Below are positions 10,878-30,398 of a stretch of DNA of 64,000 bases, piece by piece. The stretch's first letter is position 1, and each line of letters opens with the position of its first letter. A program made the position numbers and the translations under genes. The notes beneath the pieces were generated by a model, which ran no database searches, was not told the DNA's origin, and worked only from the letters and a program-made list of their open reading frames with translations. The stretch is from Candidatus Pacearchaeota archaeon (GTDB lineage: Archaea > Nanobdellota > Nanobdellia > Pacearchaeales > DTIR01). The stretch covers positions 305,528 to 369,527 of the forward strand of contig JAGVXL010000001.1 in assembly GCA_018303805.1 (NCBI GenBank). The letters run 5' to 3'.

Positions 10878-13800
10878 TCACTTCTTCTTCAACTGCCTTG
10901 CCAATACTGCCAGAATTATAACTATAACAATAACAGTGATTATTCCTGCCCACAAAACTGCCTTGCTTATTCTTGGCTTCTCCACGGCTGCTGTTGGAGT
11001 TTCTGCAGCCCCTTCAGGAGGTGTTGTAGCGGGCTCAGATTGATTTCCTGCTGGCGTTTCAACAGCAGGAGCAACGTAAACTAATGACTTAACAGTTATA
11101 TTTGCCTTCATTGTGTTAAGATTGATGCTGTTAAGCATCAGTGAAATCTCATTTATTCCATCAGCATCTATATCAACAAGCTCTTCCTTGCCAACTTGCA
11201 ACAACTTTGTTAATACTACTGACCTTATCTGCACAGAGGCAGAACTTGCAGTCAAGCCAAGCAACTTTAGAGTGTGAGTTTCATTTTCTATCTTGAATTT
11301 AATGCTTTCACTAATACCTATTTCCTTGCTTGCACTTGTTAATTCATTCTCGCTTACATCATAAATTACTGTTGTGGTTGTTCCTCCGCCTCCTGCACTT
11401 GGTGTTGTTGTGCTTGTCGTCGTGGTGGTGGTAGTAGTCGCGCTTCCTGAAATCTTGTTTGCTGTTGTGGAGAAGTGAGGAATTGTAAGCCAGAAATAGC
11501 CTGCATGTCCTGTGGCATTATCATTAGTCACATTCATGTAGCATGACTGTATTGTCGGAGTTGCAGCTGCGGTTGTATTGCCGCATATCATGCCAGGAGT
11601 GCTGAACCATGAACTATTGAAATCAGAATAGTCTGAAGGTATTTGTGAAGTGCCAGTGCCGTTTGCAGTTGCATTCCATATTACATTGTTGTCATTGTCA
11701 TAGAGGAATGAAAGGTTTACATAGTAACTCCAGTTTTCATTTATAGTTGTGTTATAAGGAATTCCTATTATCACATAGTCATAGATATTAGGAGCAAGTG
11801 AGCCGAATTTCCATACCTGAGCCAACGCGCTTGAGCTTGAGCTTGCGCTTGAGGCATTATCATTCATTACAGCGTCAGGAGGTCCAGATGCAATCAAGTC
11901 AACATTAATAAAATAAAGTGTAATGTTGTTTGTAGTTTTCATTCGCAGATTGCTCTTGCCTGCCATCATTGCCTGCATAGGGTCAAAATCTGCTGTTTTT
12001 GAGTCTCCTATTTGGCATGTTGCTGCAGGAAGATAAACATTGCATGCAGTGCTGTATCTCATGAATTTCATCTCCATCCTGCTTCCTGTCATCTTGCTGT
12101 CTGAGAAACTGCCATTTTCCAGGATCATCATTGGCCTGAATGAATATAATGTTATGTTCGTCCTGTTTGCACCGAGATTAATCTTCTGCTCTTTAGGAGC
12201 AAACTGGCTGCCGAATACTCTTACCTTTACTTCCTGTGTGTTGTTAAGTATTGACATATTAAACTTGCCATTTGTCAATGATTCAATTATGTAATGCATT
12301 GTCCCGAAGACGTTGTTGTTTTTTACAATCACCTCAACATGCGCATCCTGTGGAGCAGTGCCGTTGCTGTCCATTATCGCAACTTCTATCTTGCTGGTAT
12401 TTACTACTCCACCCATAGAATATTTGCCGAGCAGCCTTACAAGAGTAAGATTAAAAATCTGGGCACTGTTGCTCATTGTTATGTTCTGGAATATTGCAGA
12501 GTATTCTCCTTCTGCCCCTAAAGCACTTGAATTTTCAGCATATGCCTCAATCAGCCAGCTTATTCCGCCTGCAGCACCCATTAATGTAAGATTAAATGCT
12601 CCAAGTGTGCAGCCTCTCGCACCATTCAAGCCAGAGCCACTTCTCCCAAGAATGAACGAGCTTGTGTCATCTCCATCAAAATCTGAAACCTCTCCTTTCA
12701 TAGGAGGCACAAAACCTTCCCATGGAATCATTTTTGCAATTATATCCTTAACATCAACAGGGGTTGTATTCCCCAATATATTTACACATCCTGTCAAGTT
12801 ATAACTCCCAAAAGCCAAACTCTTGTTTATTGTAACAAGATGAGGGGTTGAATTAACCTCTGATGAATTCTGATATGATAGAATATTATTGCTTGTGATG
12901 CTTATGCTCATTGGAGGGGATGGACAATCAGATGCATTCATATAGCCAGGGCCTGCACAAATAGCTGGAGTCCCAGTCATATTAAAATTAAATGGGTCTC
13001 TCAAGAATATAACTGTATAGTTCCTGTTTGATGGCACAATCACATCAGCAGTCGCTGTGTCTCCTTGGATGTTGCTTTCAATAGGAAATCCTAATGACTG
13101 GTCCATAATTATATAGCCAAACCTCATTGCTCTTGTATCGTTAGTAATATAAGGGGGAGCACCTGTTCCATTTAAAGTAATATTATTATTTGCAAAAAGC
13201 CTTAATGTTGTTGCATTCTGCAAGTAGATTGTTCCGCCCTGCATATTGAACACAAGAGGCTCGCGAGGCAGAGGAGGCAAACTTGGGCCTATTTCTGTTA
13301 CGAGTCCTGCAGAATTATTAAGAAAAACCTTTAATTTATAGATTGTCATCTGCTGTCCCCCAGAGCCATTGTTCTGTATGTCTGTCAGGTTGAACTGCCC
13401 GTTTGCTGATGTTAGGACAGACCTCAAAAATCTTTCTGTTGGCGGCCCTTGCTGTCCCATTATAAACTCATACATGCTTACATTTGCTCCTGAAACATTA
13501 TCGTAAGTGGAATTTTTTACCCAGCCCGAAATAGAGAAGGCATTTACAGTTACTGTGTTGTTAATGCTGGAATAGTTTATATTGTTAGATGTATCTCTGA
13601 CTTGACAATACCATGTATATGTTCCTGGCATTTGAATTGTTTGTGTGAAGTTTGTCTGGTTGTAGGTGCCTGAAACATTAGATGAATTCACGAGGCGCGA
13701 CTGCGGCGTAAATGGACCTCCAGATATAACTTCCAGCATCCACAAATCAATTCTTAGCAATGCTACATTGTCAGAAGCATTGCAGCTGAAATTGACAGTT

Positions 13801-14814: not shown

Positions 14815-15693
14815 TTAAAATAATGCGGGGGTTACAAAAACCTCTATCAATGCCGCGATAATAAGAACAACAATGGCAATGACTATCAAGTCAACTGAAT
14901 CCCTTAGGACGCACCAGAATTTTTCATTCTTAAAATCATGCCTTATGATTGCTATGCTTAAAATTCCCCCTGCTAAAGCGCCAATGTAATATGCAACAAG
15001 TTCTGGAATTCCATGTATCAGGTAACGCATCAAGCCAATATGCAGCTGCTTAATCTGTGCATTCGTGAATAAGCCTATCGCCGCTGCAATGACGCTTGCA
15101 TTCCACGCAAGGATGAATATTGCCCCTGCGCCGAAGGCAAGAGAAAACACAAGTATGAAAATCAAAACATAAACATTGTTTGTCAATATGCCTAAGAAAT
15201 GCCCTAAATTTCCTGTTGCCTGCCCTGTCACCTGCCCTACTGCCACAAAACTTGTCAAGCCATACTGTTTCAAGCATCTTGAGAAATCTTCAGGCGCGTT
15301 TATCGCGCAGTACTGCTCAATTTGAGCTTTGAAATTCTGTATTGTTACAGACTGCGGCATCAGTATGTAAAGCAAAGAAAATCCAACAATAAAACCCAAG
15401 AAGAGGTAAGTCAGGGCAAGAATCGCCTTCCCATGCTCTTTAATCAGAACCCTTTCTTTTTTTATCTTTATATCCTTGGTTTCCTCAAGCTTGACAAGAA
15501 AATACATAAATGGAATGCAGAATATTGTTGCAAATGTAATCACCAGTATGCTTGTATACTGCGACAGGACAGTATCCCCTAAAAAAATCCAGTCAACAAA
15601 GAGTATTGAGACAGCAGAATAAAAAATTCCGACAAAAAACATCTCCCACGGCCTTCTCTCTGCCTTCTTGGGATTGATAAGCATCTCCAGCAT
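14815..15693 (-). CDS. SpoIIM/DUF95-family integral membrane protein (paralogue 1)
   Basis: A multi-TM protein with the HGIPEL motif and the AFGAGAIFILAWNASVIAAAIG segment typical of Pfam DUF95 (stage II sporulation protein M-like). Confidence 0.7.
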   Translation of the reverse strand: MLEMLINPKKAERRPWEMFFVGIFYSAVSILFVDWIFLGDTVLSQYTSILVITFATIFCIPFMYFLVKLEETKDIKIKKERVLIKEHGKAILALTYLFLGFIVGFSLLYILMPQSVTIQNFKAQIEQYCAINAPEDFSRCLKQYGLTSFVAVGQVTGQATGNLGHFLGILTNNVYVLIFILVFSLAFGAGAIFILAWNASVIAAAIGLFTNAQIKQLHIGLMRYLIHGIPELVAYYIGALAGGILSIAIIRHDFKNEKFWCVLRDSVDLIVIAIVVLIIAALIEVFVTPALF

Positions 15694-16717: not shown

Positions 16718-17545
16718 ATGAACATGGATAAAAAAAAGAGGTTTGAAAAGATATGCAATGACATTAAACAGGTTAGAATTCAGGGAGCAAGAAACATTGC
16801 CAAAGCCGCTTTGTATGCATACTCTTTGTTTCCTGATAAAAAACATAAACGGATTTTGATGAATGCAAGGCAAACTGAACCGATGCTTTTTAATGTTCTC
16901 GATAAATTTGAAAAAATTGGCTATAAAAATATATTAAAACACTTTAATGAAAGCCAGGACAGAATAAATCAAAATGTTTTAAAGCTAATCAAAAATAACG
17001 ACATTATTTTTACCCATTGCCATTCTACAAATGTTGTTAATGCTCTGATATACGCCAAGAAAAATGGGAGAAAATTTCAAGTCTATAATACAGAAACACG
17101 CCCTTTATATCAGGGAAGAAAAACAGCGAAAGAGCTAGAAAAGGCAGGGGTAAAGGTAAAGATGTTTATTGACTCTGCCATAGCGATTGCAATAGAAAAA
17201 GAAAATAAAAAAGACAAGATTTATGCCAACAAGATATTCTTAGGAGCAGATGCTCTGCTTGACAAGGGGATTATAAATAAGATTGGTTCAGGCATTATTG
17301 CTGAATTAGCTTATGGCCATAAAATTCCCCTCTATATAATAGCTGATTCATGGAAATATACAAATAAAAATATTCCAATAGAAAACAGAAAGTTAAATGA
17401 AGTTTGGAGCAGGGCTCCAAAACACATAATAATAAAAAATCCCGCATTCGAATTTGTGGAAGCAAGACACATCAGGGCAATAGTCTCTGAGCTGGGCATC
17501 CTTAGTCAGGGGCAGTTTGTGAAAAAAGCAAAGATTGTTTTGTAG
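16718..17545 (+). CDS. e2b2: ribose-1,5-bisphosphate isomerase (eIF-2B alpha/beta/delta-like family)
   Basis: IF-2B family signature GADALLDKGIINKIGSG and the THCHST segment. It lies immediately upstream of RuBisCO, as in the archaeal AMP pathway. Confidence 0.75.
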   Translation: MNMDKKKRFEKICNDIKQVRIQGARNIAKAALYAYSLFPDKKHKRILMNARQTEPMLFNVLDKFEKIGYKNILKHFNESQDRINQNVLKLIKNNDIIFTHCHSTNVVNALIYAKKNGRKFQVYNTETRPLYQGRKTAKELEKAGVKVKMFIDSAIAIAIEKENKKDKIYANKIFLGADALLDKGIINKIGSGIIAELAYGHKIPLYIIADSWKYTNKNIPIENRKLNEVWSRAPKHIIIKNPAFEFVEARHIRAIVSELGILSQGQFVKKAKIVL

Positions 17546-17590
17546 GATAAAATCAGAAAAATTTATATACAAATAAATTCTCTTCTTGAT

Positions 17591-18754
17591 ATGGCTTACA
17601 AAGATTATGTAAATCTAAAATTCAAGCCAGATAAAAAGGGTTTGATATGCACTTATTATATTGAGCCATTGCATCTTTCCTTGCAGGAAACAGCAGGGGG
17701 GGTTGCTGCTGAGAGCAGCACAGGAACGTGGATTGATGTCAAGACAAAACAAAATTATGTGAAAAAGCTTGACGCAACTGTCTTCTCGATAAAAAAACAA
17801 CAGCAAGGTGCTGAAATAAAGATTTACTATCCTTCCGGGCTTTTTGAAAAAGGAAATATGCCCAATATTCTAAGCAGCATAGCTGGAAACATCTTCGGCA
17901 TGGAGGAAATAAAAAACATAAAACTCCTTGATATTAGCTTTCCAAATGAAATTGCAAGAAGTTTTGCAGGCCCGAAATACGGCATTCAGGGAATAAGGAA
18001 GATTATGAAAGTTCACAACAGGCCATTGCTCGGGACAATAATAAAGCCCAAGCTTGGCTTGAAAACAGGGCATCATGCGAAAGTTGCATATGAATCCTGG
18101 CTGGGTGGATGTGATGTGGTAAAGGATGATGAAAATCTCTCAAGCCAGAAATTCAACAGATTTGAGGATAGATTAAAAGAAACACTAAAAATGAAGGAAC
18201 GGGCTGAAAAAGAAACAGGGAGCAAAAAGGCATATCTTGTGAATGTTACAGCAGAGACAAAAGAAATGCTAAGAAGAGCGAAGCTTGCTGAAAATTATGG
18301 AAATGAATATATAATGATTGATGTTTTAACTGCCGGCTTCTCTGCCTTGCAGACATTAAGGCAAGAGAATTTTGATTTGATAATTCATGCCCATCGCGCA
18401 GGGCATGCGGCAATGACAAAAAATCACAAGCATGGAATAGGCATGAATGTCCTTGTGAAAATGCTGAGGCTTGTCGGGGTTGACCAGCTGCATGTTGGAG
18501 CTGCAGTTGGGAAGATGTTTGAAACTTCGGCAGAAGTAAAAGAAAACATTCTTGCAGCAAAAGAAAAAACTTTCAATTTAAAACCAGTCATGCCTGTTGC
18601 ATCTGGCGGCTTGGCAATAAAAGATATTCCAGCTGTTGTCAAAATTTTTGGAAAGGATGTTGTTATCCAGATGGGCGGGGGAATTCATTCACATCCGCAA
18701 GGCACTTTTGCAGGGGCAAGGGAAGCGAGAGAAGCGATTGAGAATGCAGTGTAA
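17591..18754 (+). CDS. rbcL: RuBisCO large subunit, form III-like, short (387 aa)
   Basis: Catalytic motifs are present: GTIIKPKLGL, VVKDDENL (the carbamylated Lys context), HAHRAGHAA, LHVGAAVGK, PVASGG and MGGGIHSHPQG. Confidence 0.9.
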   Translation: MAYKDYVNLKFKPDKKGLICTYYIEPLHLSLQETAGGVAAESSTGTWIDVKTKQNYVKKLDATVFSIKKQQQGAEIKIYYPSGLFEKGNMPNILSSIAGNIFGMEEIKNIKLLDISFPNEIARSFAGPKYGIQGIRKIMKVHNRPLLGTIIKPKLGLKTGHHAKVAYESWLGGCDVVKDDENLSSQKFNRFEDRLKETLKMKERAEKETGSKKAYLVNVTAETKEMLRRAKLAENYGNEYIMIDVLTAGFSALQTLRQENFDLIIHAHRAGHAAMTKNHKHGIGMNVLVKMLRLVGVDQLHVGAAVGKMFETSAEVKENILAAKEKTFNLKPVMPVASGGLAIKDIPAVVKIFGKDVVIQMGGGIHSHPQGTFAGAREAREAIENAV

Positions 18755-21479: not shown

Positions 21480-21968
21480 TTATTTTGCTTCCTCTTTTGC
21501 CCCTGCATGCAAGGTGTCAACATTCTCCTCAACAATAATCTTCCCGCCTGCTTTTTCTATTTTCTCTCTTGCCTGAGATGAAGCAGACATTGCCTTTATT
21601 ATAAGCTTCTCTTTGATTTCCCCTTTCCCGAGAATCTTGAAATCTGGAAGCAAAAGCTCTATTCCTGAAGAAGTCTCCTTTGCAAGCCCCTTCTCGATAA
21701 AATTATCCAGCCTTTCTTCTATCTCAGAAAGATTGATTATTTTTGGCTTTAGATTATTGATTTGTTTTAAGCTTTTGAACCCATGCTTGCCAAAATAGCC
21801 TGGCATGTATTTATCAATGAAATTCCTTTTGTGCCCTGCACGCTTGCCTGTTCCAGCCATTCCCTTACCACCCTTGCTTCCCTTGCCCCTGTGCTTCTTG
21901 CCAAAGCCATAGCCGCATCTTCTTGCTCCCCTTAACCTACTTCTCTTGTCTCTTTTATGGATTTTCAT
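21480..21968 (-). CDS. rpl15: ribosomal protein uL15
   Basis: RGARRCGYGFGKKHRGKGSKGGKGMAGTGKR motif and operon position. Confidence 0.9.
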   Translation of the reverse strand: MKIHKRDKRSRLRGARRCGYGFGKKHRGKGSKGGKGMAGTGKRAGHKRNFIDKYMPGYFGKHGFKSLKQINNLKPKIINLSEIEERLDNFIEKGLAKETSSGIELLLPDFKILGKGEIKEKLIIKAMSASSQAREKIEKAGGKIIVEENVDTLHAGAKEEAK

Positions 21969-22120
21969 TTTTCAAAATTTTCCTTGACTAATTTTTTATA
22001 GCAATCCTGGCAAATATGCCACTTTTTTGCGAGGTTTTTCTTGTCTGGAGGCGAGAATAATAATGCCCCGTAATCCTCAAGCTCATTTTTACATGCATCG
22101 CATTTTGGTTTTATCGCCAT
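21965..22120 (-). CDS. 51-aa CxxC...CxxC zinc-finger-like protein inserted between uL30 and uL15 (below the ORF-track cutoff)
   Basis: My translation is MAIKPKCDACKNELEDYGALLFSPPDKKNLAKKWHICQDCYKKLVKENFEK. Its TGA overlaps the uL15 ATG in an ATGA coupling. Confidence 0.55.
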   Translation of the reverse strand: MAIKPKCDACKNELEDYGALLFSPPDKKNLAKKWHICQDCYKKLVKENFEK

Positions 22121-22590: not shown

Positions 22591-23426
22591 CTTAAAGAAC
22601 TAAGGTTCTTGCCGATACCCCTGCCTCCTTTTCCTTTCCTTGTCTGCCCTTCTGTTTTCTTTAATGCCTCAAAACATGCTTTCGCAAGATTTATCTTTGT
22701 CCTTGTCTGCCCAAATGTTTTGCTGTAAATATCCTTGATGCCTGCAAAACCAAGAATCTTCTTGCATTCATCTTCTATAACCAGTCCAGTTCCCTTTGGT
22801 GCAGGCATAAGAATCATCTCTGAACTTCCGCATTTTCCTTTCACTTTAAAAGGAATTGAATGTAAATTTTTACAGGAGCAGTCAAAGCTTCCGCAGCCCC
22901 TCGTTATCCTTATTAAATTAATTTTAGCATCTCTCAATGCCTTTTCTTTTGCAGGCAGTGTTTCCTTTGACTTCCCATAACCTACGCCCACATATCCTCC
23001 CTCATCACCAACAACAGCCATACATGCAAATGTTGGCACATTCCCCTCTGCTGTTTTCCTCTGTGTTTGCCTCCATGCACGTTTCTTGCCTCCGCCAAAC
23101 TTTCCTTTTGACTGCCCTATCGCAATTAAATCTGTCTTTAATCTAACCAGCTTGTCAATTATCTCTGCCTCCAAAATCTTCTCTCCTGCATTCAGAATGG
23201 CATCAATATTCTTAATCTCTCCATTTTTCACCATTTTGCCGAGCCTTGTTCTAGGCACCCATGATGCAATTTTCTCTTCCTCTCTCGCTTTCCTGGCATC
23301 TTCAATTGAATATTCCCCTAATTCCTGGGTTGGCTCATTTTTCTCAATATCCTCTGATTCTTTTACCTCTTCAATCTTGCTTTCTTCTGTTTCCTTCCCA
23401 ATTTGTTTTGCTTGTTCTTCTGCCAT
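22587..23426 (-). CDS. rps5: ribosomal protein uS5 with a long acidic N-terminal extension
   Basis: VVGDEGGYVGVGYGKSKE core. The N-terminus is MAEEQAKQIGKETEES. Confidence 0.9.
   Translation of the reverse strand: MAEEQAKQIGKETEESKIEEVKESEDIEKNEPTQELGEYSIEDARKAREEEKIASWVPRTRLGKMVKNGEIKNIDAILNAGEKILEAEIIDKLVRLKTDLIAIGQSKGKFGGGKKRAWRQTQRKTAEGNVPTFACMAVVGDEGGYVGVGYGKSKETLPAKEKALRDAKINLIRITRGCGSFDCSCKNLHSIPFKVKGKCGSSEMILMPAPKGTGLVIEDECKKILGFAGIKDIYSKTFGQTRTKINLAKACFEALKKTEGQTRKGKGGRGIGKNLSSLR
23377..23426 (-). repeat. shared start module, copy on uS5
   Basis: 50 nt identical to 30343-30392. The mRNA sense reads ATGGCAGAAGAACAAGCAAAACAAATTGGGAAGGAAACAGAAGAAAGCAA. Confidence 0.9.
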
Positions 23427-23427
23427 T

Positions 23428-23943
23428 TCACTTCTCCCGCTCCTTTTTAATTAACAGTCTCTCTTTTAGCTCCCCCACAGGAATCTCTTTTTGCATATGC
23501 CTACCATGAATCCTGGCATCATTGGGCATAATCTTTTCAGAATAGGGTACACTTAAACCGGCATCAGCCATGCCTTTAACACAAGCAAAAAGCCTTGAGC
23601 CATTTGTTACCCTTGCAATCCCCAAATCAACAACTGCTTTTTTAACATCAATTTTCTTCTCGGCAATTTTTCTCGCCAGCAAAATCCCTGTTAAATAAGC
23701 AGCAGGAACTGATTTCAGCGAGCCTGAATTTTTTTCAGGCCATCCATGCTGCAATAGCTCTTTTGAATTTGCTGTGCATAAAACAAAATCTATTGCCTCC
23801 TTGCTTTCGATAAGTTGCGCGATTATATACCTGTTAGTTTTTCTTATCGCAACTCTTGGTAAAAAGGATTTCAATAAAGACAGCCTGGCTCTGTAATCTG
23901 TTTTTCTGTGCCTTCTCCTTTTAAATTTCACCCGGTATACCAT
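23428..23943 (-). CDS. rpl18: ribosomal protein uL18
   Basis: RRRHRKTDYRARLSLL...RKTNRYIIAQLI motif. Confidence 0.9.
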   Translation of the reverse strand: MVYRVKFKRRRHRKTDYRARLSLLKSFLPRVAIRKTNRYIIAQLIESKEAIDFVLCTANSKELLQHGWPEKNSGSLKSVPAAYLTGILLARKIAEKKIDVKKAVVDLGIARVTNGSRLFACVKGMADAGLSVPYSEKIMPNDARIHGRHMQKEIPVGELKERLLIKKEREK

Positions 23944-23950
23944 TTTTTAA

Positions 23951-24355
23951 TTAAGATCCAATCTTAGATATATGCTCCTTTAAATGTCTTAAGTCTGTAA
24001 AGATTCCTGATTTGGCATAATTTCTTAATTTTTTATATTCCACAGAGCTTAATTTATTTATCTGCCTTAGCATTTTCAGGTATTGCCTCATTTTTCTTAT
24101 TTTCATGACATATTCCATTTTGTCCCTTACAACTTTTTTCTTCTTTCCCCCGCCTCTGCGCCACTTTCTTTTCTTCTTTGCTTTTTTGCCTGTTGTTGGC
24201 TTTATTTTTATCACCTTCTCCTTGATTAAATCCTTAATATCCTGCCTTGTTATAGCTTCTTTCACATCATCAAGTCTTGCAGGGTTGAACCATACCCTTT
24301 CAAGACCTACATTCAAAACCTTCGCAGCAAGTTTTTTCTTTCTATCCAGCTTCAT
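23951..24355 (-). CDS. rpl19e: ribosomal protein eL19
   Basis: KKLAAKVLNVGLERVWFNP motif and a Lys/Arg-rich centre. Confidence 0.9.
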   Translation of the reverse strand: MKLDRKKKLAAKVLNVGLERVWFNPARLDDVKEAITRQDIKDLIKEKVIKIKPTTGKKAKKKRKWRRGGGKKKKVVRDKMEYVMKIRKMRQYLKMLRQINKLSSVEYKKLRNYAKSGIFTDLRHLKEHISKIGS

Positions 24356-24837
24356 TTTTTCTTCTCCAGTTTAGTTTCATTCTTGGGCTCTATTTTTTCT
24401 AGCTTGCCCTTATCTTTGATTTGGAATTCATTCAAAAATTTATCAATATCAAGATTTACAAATTTAACACCCAACTGTTTTGCTTTTGTTGCAATCTGTA
24501 TTCTCTTTTTCAAACCAATACTTGCCATAACCGCTATACCCTCCTGTTTCAGATTATTAAGTTGACTTTCATTTATTATCCAAATCGGTGTTAAGCCTTG
24601 AAATGTCCCCCTAATGCTTTTTGGGCTTCTGTAGCCCACCCCCGGCATTTTTCCTACGCTGCGTTTTTTTGCCCTTAATTTATTATGCCTCCCTTTTGGC
24701 TTTCTCCACCTTTGTTTTTTCTTTCTGCCCCTGCCAAGTTTGGATAATTCCCTCCAGTCCTTTCTTACAAATCTGGGCTTTCTGCTCTTAAGCAAGCTTC
24801 TTTGCTCCAATAACCTTTTAGTATTGTCTTGTGGCAT
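24352..24837 (-). CDS. rpl32e: ribosomal protein eL32 (start moved to the ATG at 24837)
   Basis: RFVRKDW...WRKPKGRHNKLR motif. The track start at 24873 would overlap uL6. Confidence 0.85.
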   Translation of the reverse strand: MPQDNTKRLLEQRSLLKSRKPRFVRKDWRELSKLGRGRKKKQRWRKPKGRHNKLRAKKRSVGKMPGVGYRSPKSIRGTFQGLTPIWIINESQLNNLKQEGIAVMASIGLKKRIQIATKAKQLGVKFVNLDIDKFLNEFQIKDKGKLEKIEPKNETKLEKKK

Positions 24838-24847
24838 TTTTACTTGG

Positions 24848-25396
24848 TTAAATTTTATCTCCTGCTTTCTCAATCATGAAAATTCCGTCTTGGAATACTC
24901 TCCTGTCTCTCGCTCTTACTCTTGTAGCTTTTTCTATATTCAAGGCAGTCTGCCCTGCTTTTTCCTTGTCTATTGAATTGATCGTGATTATGTCCCCATT
25001 GATTTGGACATCTACACCCTCAATTAATTTCGCTTTCCTTTCTTTTACTTCACCTAAAAAATTCTTGATTATTACAACATGATTGGTAGCATCAATATGC
25101 ACAGTTATCGGGAAATGAACCGAGCATACCTGCAATTTATACTCAAAACCATTTTCTACTCCAAAAATCATATTCTTAATATGGGCAATAATTGTGCCGA
25201 GGATTTTTTTCTCGTATCTTGTTGCCTTTTCTGCCCTGAACATTATTTTGCTGTCTTGTTTTTCAATTTTTATGCCCCTAAACTTAAATGTTCTGTTTAT
25301 CCCCCCTTTTTTGCCTTTGACAATTACTGTACTTGCGTCTAACTGAACTGCAATTCCTTGCGGGATTTCCACTTCCTTGGTGATATCCTGTTTCAT
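24848..25396 (-). CDS. rpl6: ribosomal protein uL6
   Basis: Two-domain L6 pattern and operon position. Confidence 0.9.
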   Translation of the reverse strand: MKQDITKEVEIPQGIAVQLDASTVIVKGKKGGINRTFKFRGIKIEKQDSKIMFRAEKATRYEKKILGTIIAHIKNMIFGVENGFEYKLQVCSVHFPITVHIDATNHVVIIKNFLGEVKERKAKLIEGVDVQINGDIITINSIDKEKAGQTALNIEKATRVRARDRRVFQDGIFMIEKAGDKI

Positions 25397-25489
25397 TTTT
25401 TATTTTTAATAGGAGTTCCAAAGAACCTTGGTTCCCAAGAAAATCCTCTGGATTTTCTGGGCCCGAAGATCTTTCAGATTTTCGTGGCT
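25397..25489 (-). promoter_or_regulatory. structured 93-nt spacer between uS8 and uL6 (candidate attenuator, processing site or autoregulatory site)
   Basis: Elsewhere this operon is spaced by only -4 to +10 nt. Hairpins here: CCCAAGAAAATCC-tct-GGATTTTCTGGG (25434-25461, one bulge), CGAAGATCT-ttc-AGATTTTCG (25464-25484, one G-U pair), and the palindrome GAACC-TT-GGTTC. Confidence 0.45.
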
Positions 25490-25858
25490 TTAAAAGCAAT
25501 AAGCAATCAAGCTGCCCCCAATATTTTTTTCCATTGCTTCCTCATGAGCCATCAAGCCTTTTGATGTTGAAACTATCAAAATGCCAAAATCTCTGGCAGG
25601 CAACAATCTCCTTATAAACTTGTCATACTCTGAAACAGTGACGTTAAACCTTGGCTTTATTGCTCTGCACTCTGTTATATTCCCTAGTTCTACTGTTACT
25701 TCATTGCCTTCTTTGCTGTAAGCCACAATATAGCCCCTCTTCTTCATTATTTCAACAATTGCGATTAATAATTTTGAACTTGGGACTGTGCAGTCTGCCT
25801 TTCCCGCCCTTATTGCATTCATCATGCAATTCAAGGCATTCCCAACTATTTCTTTCAT
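25490..25858 (-). CDS. rps8: ribosomal protein uS8
   Basis: NALNCMMNAIRAGK...MKKRGYI motif. Confidence 0.9.
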   Translation of the reverse strand: MKEIVGNALNCMMNAIRAGKADCTVPSSKLLIAIVEIMKKRGYIVAYSKEGNEVTVELGNITECRAIKPRFNVTVSEYDKFIRRLLPARDFGILIVSTSKGLMAHEEAMEKNIGGSLIAYCF

Positions 25859-25872
25859 TTTTGCCTTTCCTC

Positions 25873-26103
25873 CTAGAGATATTTTTTAAATCCTATTTTT
25901 TCGGCTATTTCCCTGAAGCATTGCCTGCACAAATGCAAGCCATATTGGGAGATGTGCGCGCCGAATCTCCCGCATCTATGGCACTTTTTTGAGGCTATGC
26001 CAAACTTTCTTTCCTTCGGCTTGCAGAACCTCAAAAATCTCTGCTTAATTGCAGGTTTTGCGTCAAGCTGTTTCAGTATTTTATTCCAATCACTTGCGCT
26101 CAT
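25873..26103 (-). CDS. rps14: ribosomal protein uS14 (zinc type)
   Basis: [25 protein letters not shown]. The ATG at 26103 is preferred over the TTG at 26115. Confidence 0.85.
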
Positions 26104-26653
26104 TTTTCCTCTCAAGAATTTTTGTATTAAACATGCTCTGCATAAATCTTTTTGTTTCTTCCTTGCTTATCCTGTGCCTTAATGGAACACGCCCCTTCTT
26201 TGTTTTTCTTTCTGAGATTGTGCTGCCTGCTCTTGTCAAATTCACTGATACATCAAACCCTAGCATGCCTATTTCTCTCGAAAACTGCACGCCGGGGATT
26301 TCTATGTACTCTTGAATCCCAAAGCTTAGCTGGCCATTGCCGATTTGTTTCTCTAAGAACTGGTTGCCTACTGCATCCAGCAGACTTTTAAGCAGGGCTT
26401 CGGCTTCCTTGCCCTTAAGAGTAATTTTGCATCCGGTTGGCAGACCTGGCCTCAGGCTAAAAGCTGGAATTCTCTTCTTGGTTAACGTAATGATTGGCTC
26501 TTTTCCAGTTACCATCTTTAGCAGTTTAATTGAACGTTCAAGTTTTTCTGCAAGAGCCCCACAATTTAACACAATCTCAGATATCTTTAAGGCTCTCATG
26601 GGGTTTTCCTTACTTTCTTCTTTTTCAACTTGTTTTGCTTGTTCTTCTATCAT
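26090..26653 (-). CDS. rpl5: ribosomal protein uL5 (start at the ATG at 26653)
   Basis: The [16 protein letters not shown] core is preceded by a 16-aa [16 protein letters not shown] extension. Confidence 0.9.
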
Positions 26654-26659
26654 TTTGCC
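26626..26659 (-). repeat. shared start module, diverged copy on uL5
   Basis: mRNA sense reads GGCAAA-ATGATAGAAGAACAAGCAAAACAAGTTG. Confidence 0.7.
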
Positions 26660-27294
26660 TAGCCAACAACCCAAACCTTCTCCGAAGATATTTTTAATTT
26701 AGTTTTATTAATCTCAACATCAAGCTCCCTTCCTTTTATGGCAGTTACAACCCCCTCGATTCCCGCATTCTTTCCCACAATAATAATAACCCTCGCATTT
26801 TCCTGCAAAGGCAGATGCTTCACAATTTTATTCTGTTTTAAATCCACAAGAACAGAATCCCCCACTTTTGCTTTTATATCCCCGACGGAATTCACACCGC
26901 CGAACAGGTTAAATTGTATCTTCCCGCTGTTTAAGACCTTCTTGCCTATAATCTTGGAAATTTTAACAGAAGCTTCTTTTTCACTAATCTCTTTTAAACT
27001 AAGCCTTTTGCCCTTTACCACCAAAATAAAATGCTTGCCTATTGCGGGGATAAAAAGCACATCGAATATATCCAGGGGAAAGTCGTCTGCATAAATCTTT
27101 TTCCCATTGATGAGCACACACCCCTCTTTCAAAATAAATTTTGCCTCTTTCCTGGTTTTTGCTATTCTTAAGATATCCCTTAATACAACAAGCACTGCAA
27201 GACTGTTCTCTTTAGAACCCCTTGGCTCTAAGATAAATCTTGGTGTTCCCTTCCTTGCTATCGGCCATCTTTTAGGCATTGCTATCCGTTTCAT
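26659..27294 (-). CDS. rps4e: ribosomal protein eS4
   Basis: MPKRWPIARKG...LRDILRIAKTRKEAKFIL motif. Confidence 0.9.
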   Translation of the reverse strand: MKRIAMPKRWPIARKGTPRFILEPRGSKENSLAVLVVLRDILRIAKTRKEAKFILKEGCVLINGKKIYADDFPLDIFDVLFIPAIGKHFILVVKGKRLSLKEISEKEASVKISKIIGKKVLNSGKIQFNLFGGVNSVGDIKAKVGDSVLVDLKQNKIVKHLPLQENARVIIIVGKNAGIEGVVTAIKGRELDVEINKTKLKISSEKVWVVG

Positions 27295-27689
27295 TTGTTT
27301 TCTCCCTTTGTTTTTCTTTCTAAAGACTTAATTCTTTTTTTATCATCCATATTTAATTCAACAATTTGCAGTTTTGTTGGATTAAATGCAATATTGAGTT
27401 TTGTGCCATCCTTCTTTGCTTTCTGCACACCTTCAACATATACCTTTAAATTTACAGTATCTATTCCTGTAATCTTTCCTTTCTTTCCTGCAAACTCCCC
27501 CCTCATAATTTTAACAATATCGCCCTTGTGCAGCCCAAAACTCCTTTTTGAATATTTCCTCCTTAGTTCTTTGGAGAGATTTGCGCTGAAAAATTTTCTT
27601 TTTATATGCAGGGGGGCGTTATGCCTATATTTTATTTGTTTTCTAATCTGCCTGCTTGCCTTCCATTTAAGTGAAAATTTCTTTTTCAT
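27291..27689 (-). CDS. rpl24: ribosomal protein uL24 (start at the ATG at 27689)
   Basis: KOW motif HKGDIVKIMRGEFAGKKGKI. Confidence 0.85.
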   Translation of the reverse strand: MKKKFSLKWKASRQIRKQIKYRHNAPLHIKRKFFSANLSKELRRKYSKRSFGLHKGDIVKIMRGEFAGKKGKITGIDTVNLKVYVEGVQKAKKDGTKLNIAFNPTKLQIVELNMDDKKRIKSLERKTKGENK

Positions 27690-27690
27690 T

Positions 27691-28092
27691 TTACACGACA
27701 ACTCCTGCGATCTTTGCAACATGGGGCCATCTTTCGATAACCTCCCTTGCAGTAGGCCCTTTTATTAATGTGCCCTTGGGATTCCCCTTTTCGTCTTTCA
27801 AAAGCACAACAGCATTATCATAGAACCCTATTCTTTCTCCAGTAAGCCTGCGATACGGCTTTCTCTGCCTTATCACAACTGCATCAAAAACCTGCCCAGT
27901 CATTTCAGGCTGCCCTGCTTTTATGCTGACTTTAACCCAATCTGAAACTGCACATGAAACCTGCCTGCCGCGGACTGTCTTTGCTCTTTTGACTGAAATT
28001 ACTTTTGCGATTCTTCCCCCCGAATTGTCAGCAACATTAACAAATGCGCCTAAATTCATCCCCTTGGCTCGCCTTGCTGAAATTGCTTTCAT
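27691..28092 (-). CDS. rpl14: ribosomal protein uL14
   Basis: NVADNSGGRIAKVISV motif. Confidence 0.9.
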   Translation of the reverse strand: MKAISARRAKGMNLGAFVNVADNSGGRIAKVISVKRAKTVRGRQVSCAVSDWVKVSIKAGQPEMTGQVFDAVVIRQRKPYRRLTGERIGFYDNAVVLLKDEKGNPKGTLIKGPTAREVIERWPHVAKIAGVVV

Positions 28093-28472
28093 TTTTTCTC
28101 TTTGTTTTCTATCTTAGATGTTACAACATGATGTATCATTTTGCTTAATGGCCTGCATTCGGCAATCACAACATAATCCCCTGTCTTTATCTGGGGAATC
28201 AAACAGTCTGGAAGATGGGCATGTATCTTTGTCTTGCGCCTTTCATATCTTTCATACTTATACACATACCTTATCCTGCTGAATTCCACAACTGCTTTTT
28301 TTTCTCCTAACTTGATAACATAGCCGTTAAATGTTCTCCCTCTTGTCTTCACATGGCCGTGAAAAGGGCATTTCTTGTCCTTGCATTCAGCAGCTTCAGG
28401 AATTTTCTCTATTGATATGCCTCTGGCTGATTTTGCTTTTTTTCCAATTTGTTTTGCTTTTTCCTCTGCCAT
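28089..28472 (-). CDS. rps17: ribosomal protein uS17 (start at the ATG at 28472)
   Basis: CKDKKCPFHGHVKTRGRTFNGYV core. The N-terminus is MAEEKAKQIGKKAK. Confidence 0.9.
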   Translation of the reverse strand: MAEEKAKQIGKKAKSARGISIEKIPEAAECKDKKCPFHGHVKTRGRTFNGYVIKLGEKKAVVEFSRIRYVYKYERYERRKTKIHAHLPDCLIPQIKTGDYVVIAECRPLSKMIHHVVTSKIENKEKK

Positions 28473-28478
28473 TTTGCC
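28444..28478 (-). repeat. shared start module, diverged copy on uS17
   Basis: mRNA sense reads GGCAAA-ATGGCAGAGGAAAAAGCAAAACAAATTGG. Confidence 0.7.
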
Positions 28479-28548
28479 TTCTTTTGCTATTCCTATTTTA
28501 TATTTATAATGACTTTTTCCAGGGATTTTTATACGTTCTTCTTGGTTC

Positions 28549-28842
28549 TCAAACAGATTCTGCAGGGAATCCAAGCCCTTGCAACACTTCCTGCGCTTTC
28601 TTCCTGTGTTCTCCCTGCAACTCTATGGCGTTGTTCTTTATTGTCCCGCCGCAGGCAAGTTCGCTTTTCAATGTTTTTGCGATTTGTTTCATGTCAATGC
28701 TTGGGTCAATTCCCGTTATCACTGTTGAAATTTTGCCGTATCTCTTCTTCACTATATCAATCTTTATTTTCTGCTCTGTTTTTACAATGCCTTCACAAAC
28801 GCATGCTTCCTTAGGCAAGCCACACTTCGGACATATGTCCAT
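28549..28842 (-). CDS. sui1: translation initiation factor aSUI1/eIF1
   Basis: N-terminal CPKCGLPKEACVC zinc knuckle and the SUI1 fold segment KRYGKISTVITGI...ACGGTIKNNAIELQGEHR. Confidence 0.8.
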   Translation of the reverse strand: MDICPKCGLPKEACVCEGIVKTEQKIKIDIVKKRYGKISTVITGIDPSIDMKQIAKTLKSELACGGTIKNNAIELQGEHRKKAQEVLQGLGFPAESV

Positions 28843-28847
28843 GTTTT

Positions 28848-29105
28848 TTATATTTTCTCCTTATCTTGTTTTTTATTTTCTTGTTTGCGTGCATTAAGCT
28901 GAACTTTTTCTGCCTTTTTCAATTTTTGGTTGAGGAGTGTTAAGATTCTTGCAATTGTCTTTCTTGTCTCCCGAATCTTGACATTTTTCATCTGCGCGGA
29001 TTTTTGTGCATTCATCCTCAGCAGTTCAAATCTTAAATCTTTTAGCCTTTCATTTAAAGTTTTTTCATTCATATCCCTTAATCCCTTTTTTCTTATTATT
29101 GCCAT
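28848..29105 (-). CDS. rpl29: ribosomal protein uL29
   Basis: LRDMNEKTLNERLKDLRFELLRMNAQ motif. Confidence 0.9.
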   Translation of the reverse strand: MAIIRKKGLRDMNEKTLNERLKDLRFELLRMNAQKSAQMKNVKIRETRKTIARILTLLNQKLKKAEKVQLNARKQENKKQDKEKI

Positions 29106-29107
29106 TT

Positions 29108-29902
29108 TTATTTCTCTTTACTCTCTTCCCCCCTCTTCCTTTTTTCCTCTTCAAGGGTTTTTATTTGATTTTTTTCTTTTGATTTTGTTTTTTTCTTTAT
29201 GCTTTTCTTTCTTTTAGGGGGTTTCTCTCCAGATTCTTTTCCAGTTTCAGTTGTTTGCTGAGCTTGTGCTTGCTGTGCCGCCTGTACTGCCTCACCTGAA
29301 ACAATTTTGAAATCCTTGATTTCTAGTTTGTCTACTATATATGCATTAGGGGGCATTATCTCCACCTTGATTCCTACAGACCCTGGAATTGTTTGTGCCG
29401 CTATTCTTGCCCTATCAACAACTTTTGCTGGGTCGCCTGTTTTTTTGAGCAAACCATATGAAAAACGCCAGGATTTTGCCCTTTCACCGGGCAATTTTCC
29501 ACCCAAACGTATTTCAGCCCCTAATGCTCCGGCTCGTTTTATCCTCTCCAGCATCTTATACGCAGTCATTTTAAACCTTATTGGCCCGAACCTTTCTAAA
29601 GCCAAGGCAATTTCATCTGCAACAGCCCATGCATCCAAATCAGGATTGTCTATTTCCTGGATCTCTATATGGGGGTTATCCATCTTAAACTCCCGTTTCA
29701 GTGTGCTGGTTAGATTAATAATCTTCTCCCCACGCCGGCCTATAATCAAGCCGGGTTTACTTGTTCTTACTAAAATCTTCTCTCCTACAGGAGTTCTTTC
29801 TATTCCAATAGAGCTTATCTTGCCCTTGCCAAGTTCCTTCCTTACAAATTCTTTTAATGTAAACTCGTCCTTATTCATCTGAACAAATTTTCTTTCAATC
29901 AT
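29108..29902 (-). CDS. rps3: ribosomal protein uS3 with a Lys/Glu-rich C-terminal tail
   Basis: KH domain GIERTPVGEKILVRTSKPGLIIGRRGEKI. Confidence 0.9.
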   Translation of the reverse strand: MIERKFVQMNKDEFTLKEFVRKELGKGKISSIGIERTPVGEKILVRTSKPGLIIGRRGEKIINLTSTLKREFKMDNPHIEIQEIDNPDLDAWAVADEIALALERFGPIRFKMTAYKMLERIKRAGALGAEIRLGGKLPGERAKSWRFSYGLLKKTGDPAKVVDRARIAAQTIPGSVGIKVEIMPPNAYIVDKLEIKDFKIVSGEAVQAAQQAQAQQTTETGKESGEKPPKRKKSIKKKTKSKEKNQIKTLEEEKRKRGEESKEK

Positions 29903-30392
29903 TTTTTGCTGTGCCCCCTCTCTCCTTTGCTATCAATGTAACATGTGTGCGTTTGAATTTTCTAAACTTTCGGTGGTATCTCTTTCTTGAAGCAAGGTTT
30001 GCTTTTGCAATTGCAATTCTTACTCTTGAGATTTCCAAGCCATTTACTGAAGCATTGGCAGAGAGGTTTCTAAGCAGTTTGATAAACTGCTTTGCTGCTT
30101 TTATAGGGTATCTCCCTGACATCATACCTCCTCTATGGGGGATTTCATCTCCGTACATGGGCACGGCTTTCTTGCCTGCAACAACTGCCTGTAAATCTGC
30201 AATTGCTCTTTCAATTGAATTCTTTTTTATCATATTGCATATTGCTATTGAGTGTTTTGGGGATATAGACAAATCCCTTGCATTAACAGCTGCCTCCTGC
30301 AATTTCCTTTTTGATTTTACTGCTGCTTTTTTCTCAGGCTTTTTGCTTTCTTCTGTTTCCTTCCCAATTTGTTTTGCTTGTTCTTCTGCCAT
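29895..30392 (-). CDS. rpl22: ribosomal protein uL22 (start at the ATG at 30392)
   Basis: ARDLSISPKHSIAICNMIK core. The N-terminus is MAEEQAKQIGKETEESKK. The track start at 30482 would overlap uS19. Confidence 0.9.
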   Translation of the reverse strand: MAEEQAKQIGKETEESKKPEKKAAVKSKRKLQEAAVNARDLSISPKHSIAICNMIKKNSIERAIADLQAVVAGKKAVPMYGDEIPHRGGMMSGRYPIKAAKQFIKLLRNLSANASVNGLEISRVRIAIAKANLASRKRYHRKFRKFKRTHVTLIAKERGGTAKND

Positions 30393-30398
30393 TTTGCC
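30343..30398 (-). repeat. shared start module, copy on uL22
   Basis: 50 nt identical to 23377-23426, plus GGCAAA immediately upstream of the ATG. Confidence 0.9.

Follow-up and report, generated by a model that had tools for sequence, protein, structure and literature searches.

Probable concerted evolution of a short translation-start cassette on four non-homologous ribosomal protein genes of a Pacearchaeota archaeon

Why should four ribosomal protein genes that are not homologous to one another begin with nearly the same DNA? The question is raised by a stretch of 64,000 nucleotides (the window hereafter; contig JAGVXL010000001.1 of assembly GCA_018303805.1, positions 305,528 to 369,527) from a Candidatus Pacearchaeota archaeon, a tiny DPANN organism; a groundwater metagenome scaffold of 591 kb contains the window without any difference. 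The region at 20–34 kb of the window is an archaeal S10/spc-type ribosomal protein operon, which runs on the minus strand from uL3 to SecY. Within it, the genes for uS5, uL5, uS17 and uL22 (identities assigned via Pfam) carry copies of what may be described as a dispersed repeat of ~30–57 nt, made up of a leader hexamer GGCAAA, the start codon and the first 8–17 codons. We consider it likely that this cassette is a tolerated translation start and tail homogenised by recombination, and that the sameness of its copies is mainly a by-product of that recombination.

The uS5 and uL22 genes share 52 exact bases, two more than reported in a first-pass annotation made from the sequence alone. These comprise the AA of the leader, the ATG and 47 more bases ending in AGCAA, and form the longest exact repeat in the 14-kb operon, where the next unrelated repeat measures 17 nt. 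The diverged copies that had been assigned to uS17 and uL5 were recovered by mismatch, core and peptide scans: the uS17 copy has two mismatches across its first 29 nt, and the uL5 copy has two in the 23-nt core and a 2-codon gap further along. As had also been noted, GGCAAA lies immediately 5' of the ATG in uL22, uS17 and uL5 (in uL5, its first G is the final base of the eS4 stop TAG). The uS5 gene has GTGAA in that place instead, because the uL18 stop TGA fills positions -4 to -2. The original description of a 16-codon module on four genes was thus right about the genes but not about the length, as all 17 codons are common to uS5 and uL22 only, and uS17 shares ~10–11 of them.

With up to three mismatches allowed, a 29-nt pattern found 3 sites in the window and none in 100 shuffles. 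Scans with the 23-nt core (≤6 mismatches) and with a peptide motif each returned exactly four sites in 64 kb, all of them starts of ribosomal protein genes, and no further copy was present on either strand of the window, including no reverse-complement copy. When positions -6 to +30 were compared among 23 genes of the locus, the six pairs of cassette genes took ranks 1–6 of 253 pairs, with 28–33 of 36 positions identical (background 15.8 ± 3.6; next best pair, 23). Other tails in the window that are rich in lysine and glutamate (K/E-rich) are only ~67–72% identical to one another (family D19).

A repeat of this kind could arise as an assembly or chimera artefact, the one-off event that the first-pass annotation had named as a possible refutation, and contigs assembled by Logan with k=31 do break at the repeat. 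However, at 52 nt the repeat is shorter than the sequencing reads, and at least eight contigs of different ENA assemblies, made with different assemblers, show an identical uS5 start within its own flanks; the uL22 protein is present on 12 contigs. In sister lineage H, described below, the uS17 and uL5 copies lie on a single contig (L131), and the uL5 copy reads alike in two replicate assemblies. We give an artefact almost no credence and regard it as effectively excluded. It was also observed that in another sister lineage, S, Logan contigs (k=31) begin or end exactly inside the cassette (GGCAAAATGGCAGAAGAAAAAACAAAACA; L136:1-30 and 1955-1984, L137:1896-1925, L138:1-28). The repeat therefore fragments short-k assemblies of this marker operon.

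Sister contigs were reached via 90%-identity clusters of operon proteins. We refer to the window lineage as W, to contigs from the Hainich groundwater well H51 as H (L011, L130, L131) and to contigs from Logan runs SRR22388321 and SRR22387997 as S (L135–L138); the two sister lineages are ~88–91% identical in DNA, and the mutual identity of W, H and S is ~87–93% over the operon. An alignment of orthologous genes from related genomes had been proposed as a check on the module. It shows the cassette on uL22, uS17 and uL5 in all three lineages, in versions specific to each, and unrelated tails in distant relatives. Every listed copy in W, H and S has GGCAAA before the ATG, except W uS5. The peptide versions are MAEEQAKQ in W, MTEKKAKQ in H and MAEEKTKQ in S (codons in Table 1), and the H uL22 peptide (L011) also contains KETEESKK.

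Within each genome, private changes recur across non-orthologous genes: ACA at codon 2 (3 copies) and AAA at codon 4 (2 copies) in H, CAA at codon 5 (3 copies) in W, and ACA at codon 6 (3 copies) in S. Over codons 1–7, W and H orthologues differ at 4/21 positions in uL22, 3/21 in uL5 and 2/21 in uS17, whereas within a genome W uL22 and uS5, and likewise H uL22 and uS17, differ at 0/21 (other pairs, 1–4). Even the synonymous choice at codon 3 largely sorts by genome: every H copy has GAG, every S copy has GAA, and so do 3/4 of the W copies (the exception, uS17, has GAG). This points to a process at the DNA level. We simulated independent evolution with 6% change per lineage, and also ran a two-lineage version. 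Four or more sites at which two or more genes of one lineage shared a derived base occurred with P = 7e-4, and two or more sites common to all three genes of a lineage with P = 1e-5.

On the 3' side of the cassette, each gene tracks its own orthologue, as expected from the gene tree. The uL5 tail is a mosaic: after codon 8, W and S keep GTT GAR AAR GAA, whereas H has the uL22-like ATT GGG AAA GAA GCA GAA GAA AGC, so that H uL5 carries a longer uL22-like tract than uL5 of W or S. Thus, paralogous copies are closer than orthologues, shared derived changes are in excess and mosaic tracts have borders, all of which are marks of gene conversion. The partners, however, are not homologous genes; they belong to different Pfam families (S5, L5, S17 and L22) and only their tails are alike. 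On these sequence comparisons, the greater likeness within genomes than between orthologues indicates concerted evolution by short-tract gene conversion.

A particular change concerns uS5. In S, this gene starts ATG GCA GAA GAG AGC AAA GAA TCA GAA ACA GAA AGC AAG ATT GAA GAG (MAEESKESETESKIEE). The W and S genes are orthologous up to ATGGCAGAAGA and from AGCAAGATTGAAGAG (AGC AAG ATT) onward, and only the core between them differs. That core, CAA GCA AAA CAA ATT GGG AAG (CAAGCAAAACAAATTGGGAAG...), is absent from S uS5 and is what makes W uS5 equal to uL22; the flanks on either side of it are already common to uS5 and uL22 (5' AA-ATGGCAGAAGA; 3' GAAACAGAA..AGCAA). The simplest history would be that uS5 gained the core by conversion from uL22 in W, after the split from S, the uL22 copy being the probable donor and the event being anchored at either end in microhomology that was already there. 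Microhomology at the uS5 start is expected, because uS5 tails in the phylum typically begin MAE(E/K). As history, then, the earlier idea of a transplanted initiation cassette is supported, since uS5 has gained a core that S lacks.

There are also signs in the sequences that turnover of the cassette is ongoing. One W strain (L132, 1763-1790; sample ERZ27254836) is 100% identical to the window except for the clean loss of a 21-nt uS17 segment, which H uS17 lacks as well. The length of each cassette indel is divisible by three, at 6 nt for W uL5, 21 nt for uS17 and 12 nt for uS5. A further variant, I9M in the uS17 tail, is encoded in read set SRR3989338.

How far the cassette extends beyond these lineages was judged from wider relatives. 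The listed uL22 and uS5 homologues of Pacearchaeota and Nanoarchaeota have long, variable K/E-rich N-terminal tails that often begin MAEE, MAEK or MVEE, but among 240 such homologues words of the module occurred only in uL22 and uS5 of the window itself and in one 87%-identical uL22. The same variable K/E-rich N-termini were seen in 149 uS17 representatives, and in a library search with uS17 no protein beyond the cluster of the window itself had the module. Among relatives, L008 (uL22 62% identical) has the full operon and tails on the same four genes, with no common cassette and no GGCAAA, and a closer one (L009; ~72% DNA identity) likewise has none on uL22 and uS17. It follows that the cassette is young and limited to a narrow clade. 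The uS17 gene was considered as a clear source of the KQIGK core and rejected, as the likeness to L008 uS17 is absent from other relatives. A contig search with an eS4 query returned a distant Micrarchaeum locus only, and the matches to a chimeric uS5+uL5+uS17 protein query were nearly all uS5 homologues, none of them close. A protein query made up of the module by itself gave no scored match.

These comparisons bear on the possibility of convergence alone, in which K/E-rich tails of alike composition and start context came to resemble each other with no recombination. The frequency of MAEE, MAEK and MVEE starts in uS5 and uL22 of the phylum is in keeping with it, as is L008 uS5, whose first 24 nt match the cassette consensus at 22 positions. 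The same 25 nt also open an unrelated bacterial bL12 gene. Convergence does not, however, account for 52 exact bases where other repeats in the operon reach at most 17 nt and shuffles give no match, for lineage-specific changes common to 2–3 genes (simulated P 1e-5 to 7e-4), or for the lower identity among other K/E-rich tails of the window. We regard it as extremely improbable and, like an artefact, effectively excluded. The bL12 gene (L070:5350-5886, in an L11-L1-L10-L12 operon) has an N-terminal extension rich in K, E, T and Q whose first 25 nt equal the cassette (ATGGCAGAAGAACAAGCAAAACAAG, MAEEQAKQ). It was the sole start-codon match among those listed from a metagenome DNA pattern scan (GARRAAMAAGCAAAACAARYTG), which was too permissive and gave at least 118 chance matches in unrelated genes. 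The likeness probably reflects convergence of A-rich tail starts, and the scan itself forced 22 of the 25 bases. As a separate observation, uL14, eS4 and eL19 of L008 share a 16–20-nt start region (AAGGAGCAAAAAAAATGAAA; a Shine-Dalgarno-like motif, an A-rich spacer and ATG; 12139-12158, 12937-12956 and 15665-15680), a milder case of alike starts on different ribosomal genes.

Table 1. Cassette copies, their codons in lineages W, H and S, and the genes and segments that carry or adjoin them (positions are those of the window)
Feature	Position	Strand	Details
uL22 copy	30343..30398	minus	GGCAAA 30393-30398; ATG 30390-30392; codons 2-17 = MAEEQAKQIGKETEESK
uS5 copy	23377..23428	minus	52 nt = uL22 30343-30394; upstream bound = uL18 stop TGA 23428-23430
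uS17 copy	28440..28478	minus	GGCAAA + codons 1-11 (MAEEKAKQIGK); ATG at 28472
uL5 copy	26606..26659	minus	GGCAAA + 16 codons; ATG at 26653; 2-codon gap (6 nt) vs uL22
W uL22 and uS5, codons			ATG GCA GAA GAA CAA GCA AAA CAA ATT GGG AAG GAA ACA GAA GAA AGC
W uL5, codons			ATG ATA GAA GAA CAA GCA AAA CAA GTT GAA AAA GAA GAA AGT
W uS17, codons			ATG GCA GAG GAA AAA GCA AAA CAA ATT GGA AAA
H uL22 (L011), codons			ATG ACA GAG AAA AAA GCA AAA CAA ACT GGT AAG GAA ACA GAA GAA AGC
H uS17, codons			ATG ACA GAG AAA AAA GCA AAA, then 7-codon gap
H uL5, codons			ATG ACA GAG GAA AAA GCA AAA CAA ATT GGG AAA GAA GCA GAA GAA AGC; version MTEEKAKQIGKEAEESKE
S uL22, uS17 and uL5, codons			all GGCAAA ATG GCA GAA GAA AAA ACA AAA CA; identical over 29 nt
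S uL22 (L136), continuation			MAEEKTKQMEKEEKR
S uL5, continuation			MAEEKTKQVEKENPMR; version MAEEKTKQVEKE
S uS5 (L135), start			ATGGCAGAAGAG AGCAAAGAATCAGAAACAGAA AGCAAG; no QAKQIGK core; then same uS5-specific downstream sequence
uS17 segment, 21 nt, codons 8-14	28431..28451	minus	lies between two AAAGCAAAA direct repeats
SUI1/uS17 spacer, 76 nt, non-coding	28473..28548	minus	AT-rich TATA-like stretch inside
uL22 gene, 165 aa	29895..30392	minus	PF00237 residues 38-141
uS17 gene, 127 aa	28089..28472	minus	PF00366 residues 56-118; S17_N weak match from residue 23
uL5 gene, 187 aa from ATG	26090..26653	minus	PF00281 residues 17-68; PF00673 residues 72-147
uS5 gene, 279 aa	22587..23426	minus	PF00333 and PF03719 matches

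As to how the pattern came about, we infer that short-tract ectopic gene conversion, or else template switching, would have acted time and again between genes of one orientation, 1.8–7 kb apart, and so evened out the copies. Such events could be seeded by microhomology, the tails all opening with similar A/G-rich codons (ATG GCA GAA GAA ...), and the conversions would survive where tails are translated, unconstrained in sequence and probably disordered. The 52-nt identity would then be the latest event, from uL22 to uS5, and the cassette itself would work as an ordinary translation start followed by the first residues of a flexible tail. That only these four genes carry it may be understood because a gene can bear to have its opening codons overwritten only if they are free of constraint. 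Consistent with this, in Pacearchaeota these four operon genes have a free variable N-terminal tail, and most others seem to start directly with conserved residues, although a short variable tail is possible in eL32, too. Where eL32 begins is uncertain (24352-24873, minus strand): public gene calls use a TTG (147 aa), and an upstream in-frame ATG (MPQDNTKRLLEQRSLLKSRKPRF) fits the length of the L008 orthologue better.

Several points weigh against this explanation. Tracts of 20–50 nt offer rather little homology for recombination to be efficient. All that is available of H and S is short contigs of low coverage, the comparison covers genes of this operon only (in H, uL22, uS17 and uL5), and translation of the cassette is itself deduced. 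In addition, the first 8 codons with GGCAAA are near-identical among genes in three lineages while the peptide drifts, and such sameness could reflect selection through a shared trans-acting partner and not conversion alone. In that case, the cassette would be a selected portable start module, through which one partner would control the synthesis, RNA processing or assembly of a defined subset of ribosomal proteins from the two subunits. Conversion would keep the copies matched to the partner as it evolves, and new genes could be recruited, as uS5 was. We hold this to be unlikely.

A cis-acting RNA signal would be a selected element of that sort, by which one trans factor (a protein or a small antisense RNA) co-regulates translation or processing of uL22, uS17, uL5 and uS5, conversion only keeping the copies matched; a common RNA target for regulation or processing had also been suggested at first. 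Sameness within lineages with drift between them fits co-evolution with such a factor, all copies of the cassette span the start codon, and two small- and two large-subunit proteins are a sensible set to balance. However, the cassette matched no Rfam family, and the four 80-nt regions around it had no structure in common and folded no better than shuffles (minimum free energy -0.7 to -7.1 kcal/mol; z-scores +1.3, +1.7, -0.8 and +0.7). Neither structure nor Rfam thus supports a common target. The lack of a reverse-complement copy in the 64-kb window, the lack of GGCAAA on uS5, the restriction to genes with free N-terminal tails (as tolerance predicts) and the young age of the cassette, which is absent at ~72% (L009) or lower (L008) DNA identity, further argue against it. 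Taken with its attractions, we judge such a signal decidedly unlikely.

Other roles for the nucleotide sequence were considered and rejected. A structured RNA or Rfam family does not fit the weak folding and the missing Rfam match, and no features like those of transfer RNA or transfer-messenger RNA were found in the cassette. As for an exceptionally unstructured start region, uS5 and uS17 were among the least structured of 27 start regions that were folded and uL22 and uL5 were mid-range, so that cassette starts are not consistently below other operon genes. GGCAAA is no module-only signal, as the whole operon is A-rich around start codons, the AAA-ATG context is generic in it and uS8 also has GGCAAAA-ATG. 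A rare-codon ramp was dismissed because 11/16 cassette codons are the commonest synonymous choice. With leader and codons ordinary and the structure of the start regions mixed, the transplanted cassette envisaged at the outset has no evident special role in initiation.

The cassette is very probably translated from its own ATG, to judge from the reading frames. No other ATG lies ahead of the conserved cores, and the uL5 start in the NCBI annotation is the cassette ATG. Longer upstream starts were rejected: TTG extensions overlap upstream genes, and the upstream extension of the uS17 open reading frame (ORF) is broken in H by a 1-nt indel, which points to the cassette ATG as the start codon there. 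Together with the frame-keeping indels, these points make translation of the cassette very probable. The uS17 gene may in addition have an internal promoter that gives a very short leader starting near GGCAAA. The SUI1/uS17 spacer is the only sizeable one in the operon; its TATA-like stretch (TTATAAATATAAAAT, ~28495-28509, minus strand) lies 22 nt 5' of the uS17 ATG and recurs unchanged in H and almost unchanged in S, and TATAAATATAAAAT in the same spacer is kept between W and H.

If the cassette is translated, it might act as a shared N-terminal peptide tag, read by a chaperone, a modifying enzyme or a protease during ribosome assembly. Each copy is in frame and occupies the very N-terminus of its ribosomal protein, and every indel keeps the reading frame. 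The peptide itself, however, is poorly kept. The uL22 version varies from MAEEQAKQIGK to MTEKKAKQTGK and MAEEKTKQMEK, and position 2 is A, T or I; between lineages A2T, E4K, Q5K, A6T and I9T/M have occurred and indels of 2, 4 and 7 codons are tolerated, with 7 uS17 residues lost in one strain and in H. That synonymous codon 3 also sorts largely by genome points away from the peptide as well. No cleavage motif was apparent, since only E3, A6, K7 and Q8 are kept across the copies and A6 is T in S, and the Pfam labels of the operon include no peptidase next to the ribosomal protein genes. The 8–17 residues match no Pfam domain. We ran AlphaFold2 with family alignments on uL22 and uS5. In uL22, residues 1–19 mostly had a predicted local distance difference test (pLDDT) score below 50 (means of 46, 45 and 59 for 10-residue blocks over residues 1–30), and there was no secondary structure before residue 33, where the confident fold begins. 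In uS5, block means over residues 1–40 were pLDDT 38–47 and the confident fold started at about residue 41. The uL22 cassette was drawn as a coil, that of uS5 as a lone helix.

Given the drift, the indels and the low pLDDT, we consider a tag of this kind very unlikely. Of the early suggestion that a uniform acidic tag is maintained by gene conversion, the DNA-level uniformity is strongly supported by the lineage versions and the simulations, and the sequence-specific tag is not. It had likewise been stated that the conserved parts of these proteins start right after the module. This is true of uL5, in which the conserved core begins at residue 17, but it begins at residue 38 in uL22 (not ~45), at about residue 23 in uS17 and at about residue 55 in uS5, and in these three a variable K/E-rich tail lies between cassette and core.

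Other features of the locus were recorded in passing. An ORF of 51 aa with two CxxC pairs (zinc-ribbon-like) lies between uL30 and uL15 (21965-22120, minus strand); it has no counterpart at the same position in L008 and matches no Pfam family above cut-off. In lineage S, an extra gene for a 77-aa winged-helix protein (PF08461 HTH_12, E = 3e-7; L137:607-840), absent in W, H and L008, is located between uL14 and uL24. At ~2800–10000 of the window, one or more very long ORFs contain internal direct repeats of 285–300 nt with 63–96% identity (families D1–D5), which suggests a large repetitive surface-type protein. A gene for the large subunit of RuBisCO (probably form III) adjoins an IF-2B-family gene (ribose-1,5-bisphosphate isomerase-like; 16724-18754, plus strand), and the two lie just past SecY, an EMC3-like gene and prefoldin. 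RuBisCO and an IF-2B-family protein make up a nucleotide-salvage pair often reported in DPANN.

The concerted pattern has consequences beyond this operon. It means that concerted evolution can extend to genes that are essential, single-copy and not homologous to one another, along a path that would lead from compositional convergence of unconstrained tails through microhomology and recombination to true identity spanning the start codon. This would provide a route for the exchange of translation starts and N-terminal tails between unrelated genes, and a natural system in which the minimal homology and tract length of gene conversion could be studied in an uncultivated DPANN archaeon. In practice, the operon is used for phylogeny and completeness estimates, and the repeat both fragments its short-k assemblies and gives marker proteins identical N-terminal residues that are not orthologous. 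Should selection prove to be behind the sameness, the cassette would represent a new kind of coordinating signal for archaeal ribosomal protein production.

In a search of the accessible literature we came across no description of ribosomal protein genes with a common start cassette that undergoes conversion, although such an absence is no proof of novelty. Among known systems, S8 autoregulates the spc operon of E. coli through an mRNA site where L5 starts, and known sites of this type are structured mimics of rRNA. The cassette resembles the S8 site in standing at the translation start of internal S10/spc-type cistrons, uL5 among them, but it is purine-rich and unstructured and belongs to no Rfam family. 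An N-terminal propeptide that is cleaved off is known from bL27; unlike this bL27/Prp type, the cassette has no conserved cleavage motif and the operon Pfam labels include no peptidase. An N-terminal moiety common to different ribosomal proteins is known from ubiquitin, which is fused to eL40 and eS31 (PMC8122580). As in the accessible part of that account, a single N-terminal moiety here stands on non-homologous ribosomal proteins of both subunits. Ubiquitin, however, is a folded, highly conserved beta-grasp protein of ~76 residues that is cleaved off, whereas the 8–17 residues encoded by the cassette drift and are given low confidence in the models. According to the portion available of a recent survey, ribosomal proteins have terminal tails that are flexible and predominantly disordered (bioRxiv 10.64898/2026.06.18.733196), and the cassette likewise encodes the start of charged N-terminal tails. 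That portion deals with bacterial, eukaryotic and mitochondrial ribosomes, and contains no archaea and no DNA-level identity between tails.

Closer parallels come from genes whose 5' ends recombine. In Helicobacter bab/sab and Mycoplasma vlp, shared 5' cassettes consisting of a leader and signal peptide are homogenised by recombination. There, as here, several genes retain the same short 5' end, translation start included; those genes are paralogous and non-essential and serve antigenic variation, whereas the present ones are essential, single-copy, non-homologous housekeeping genes. Concerted evolution by gene conversion is known from tufA and tufB in enterobacteria. In archaea, interlocus gene conversion was described for mtrA-1 and mtrA-2 within the mtr operon of methanogens (PMC4632066). 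As far as the accessible part of that work goes, the likenesses are several: the copies of one genome are closer to one another than orthologues are between genomes, the converted tracts form mosaics, an operon or chromosome is common to the partners, and gene conversion is known to occur in archaea. What differs from mtrA, on the same portion, and from tuf is that four non-homologous genes take part, that only a 5' tail of 30–57 nt is shared, that the homology seems secondary, having come from compositional convergence, and that the tract takes in the start codon along with 6 nt of leader. The new element here is that a known process, concerted evolution, is extended to the 5' ends of non-homologous essential genes and documented across three sister lineages.

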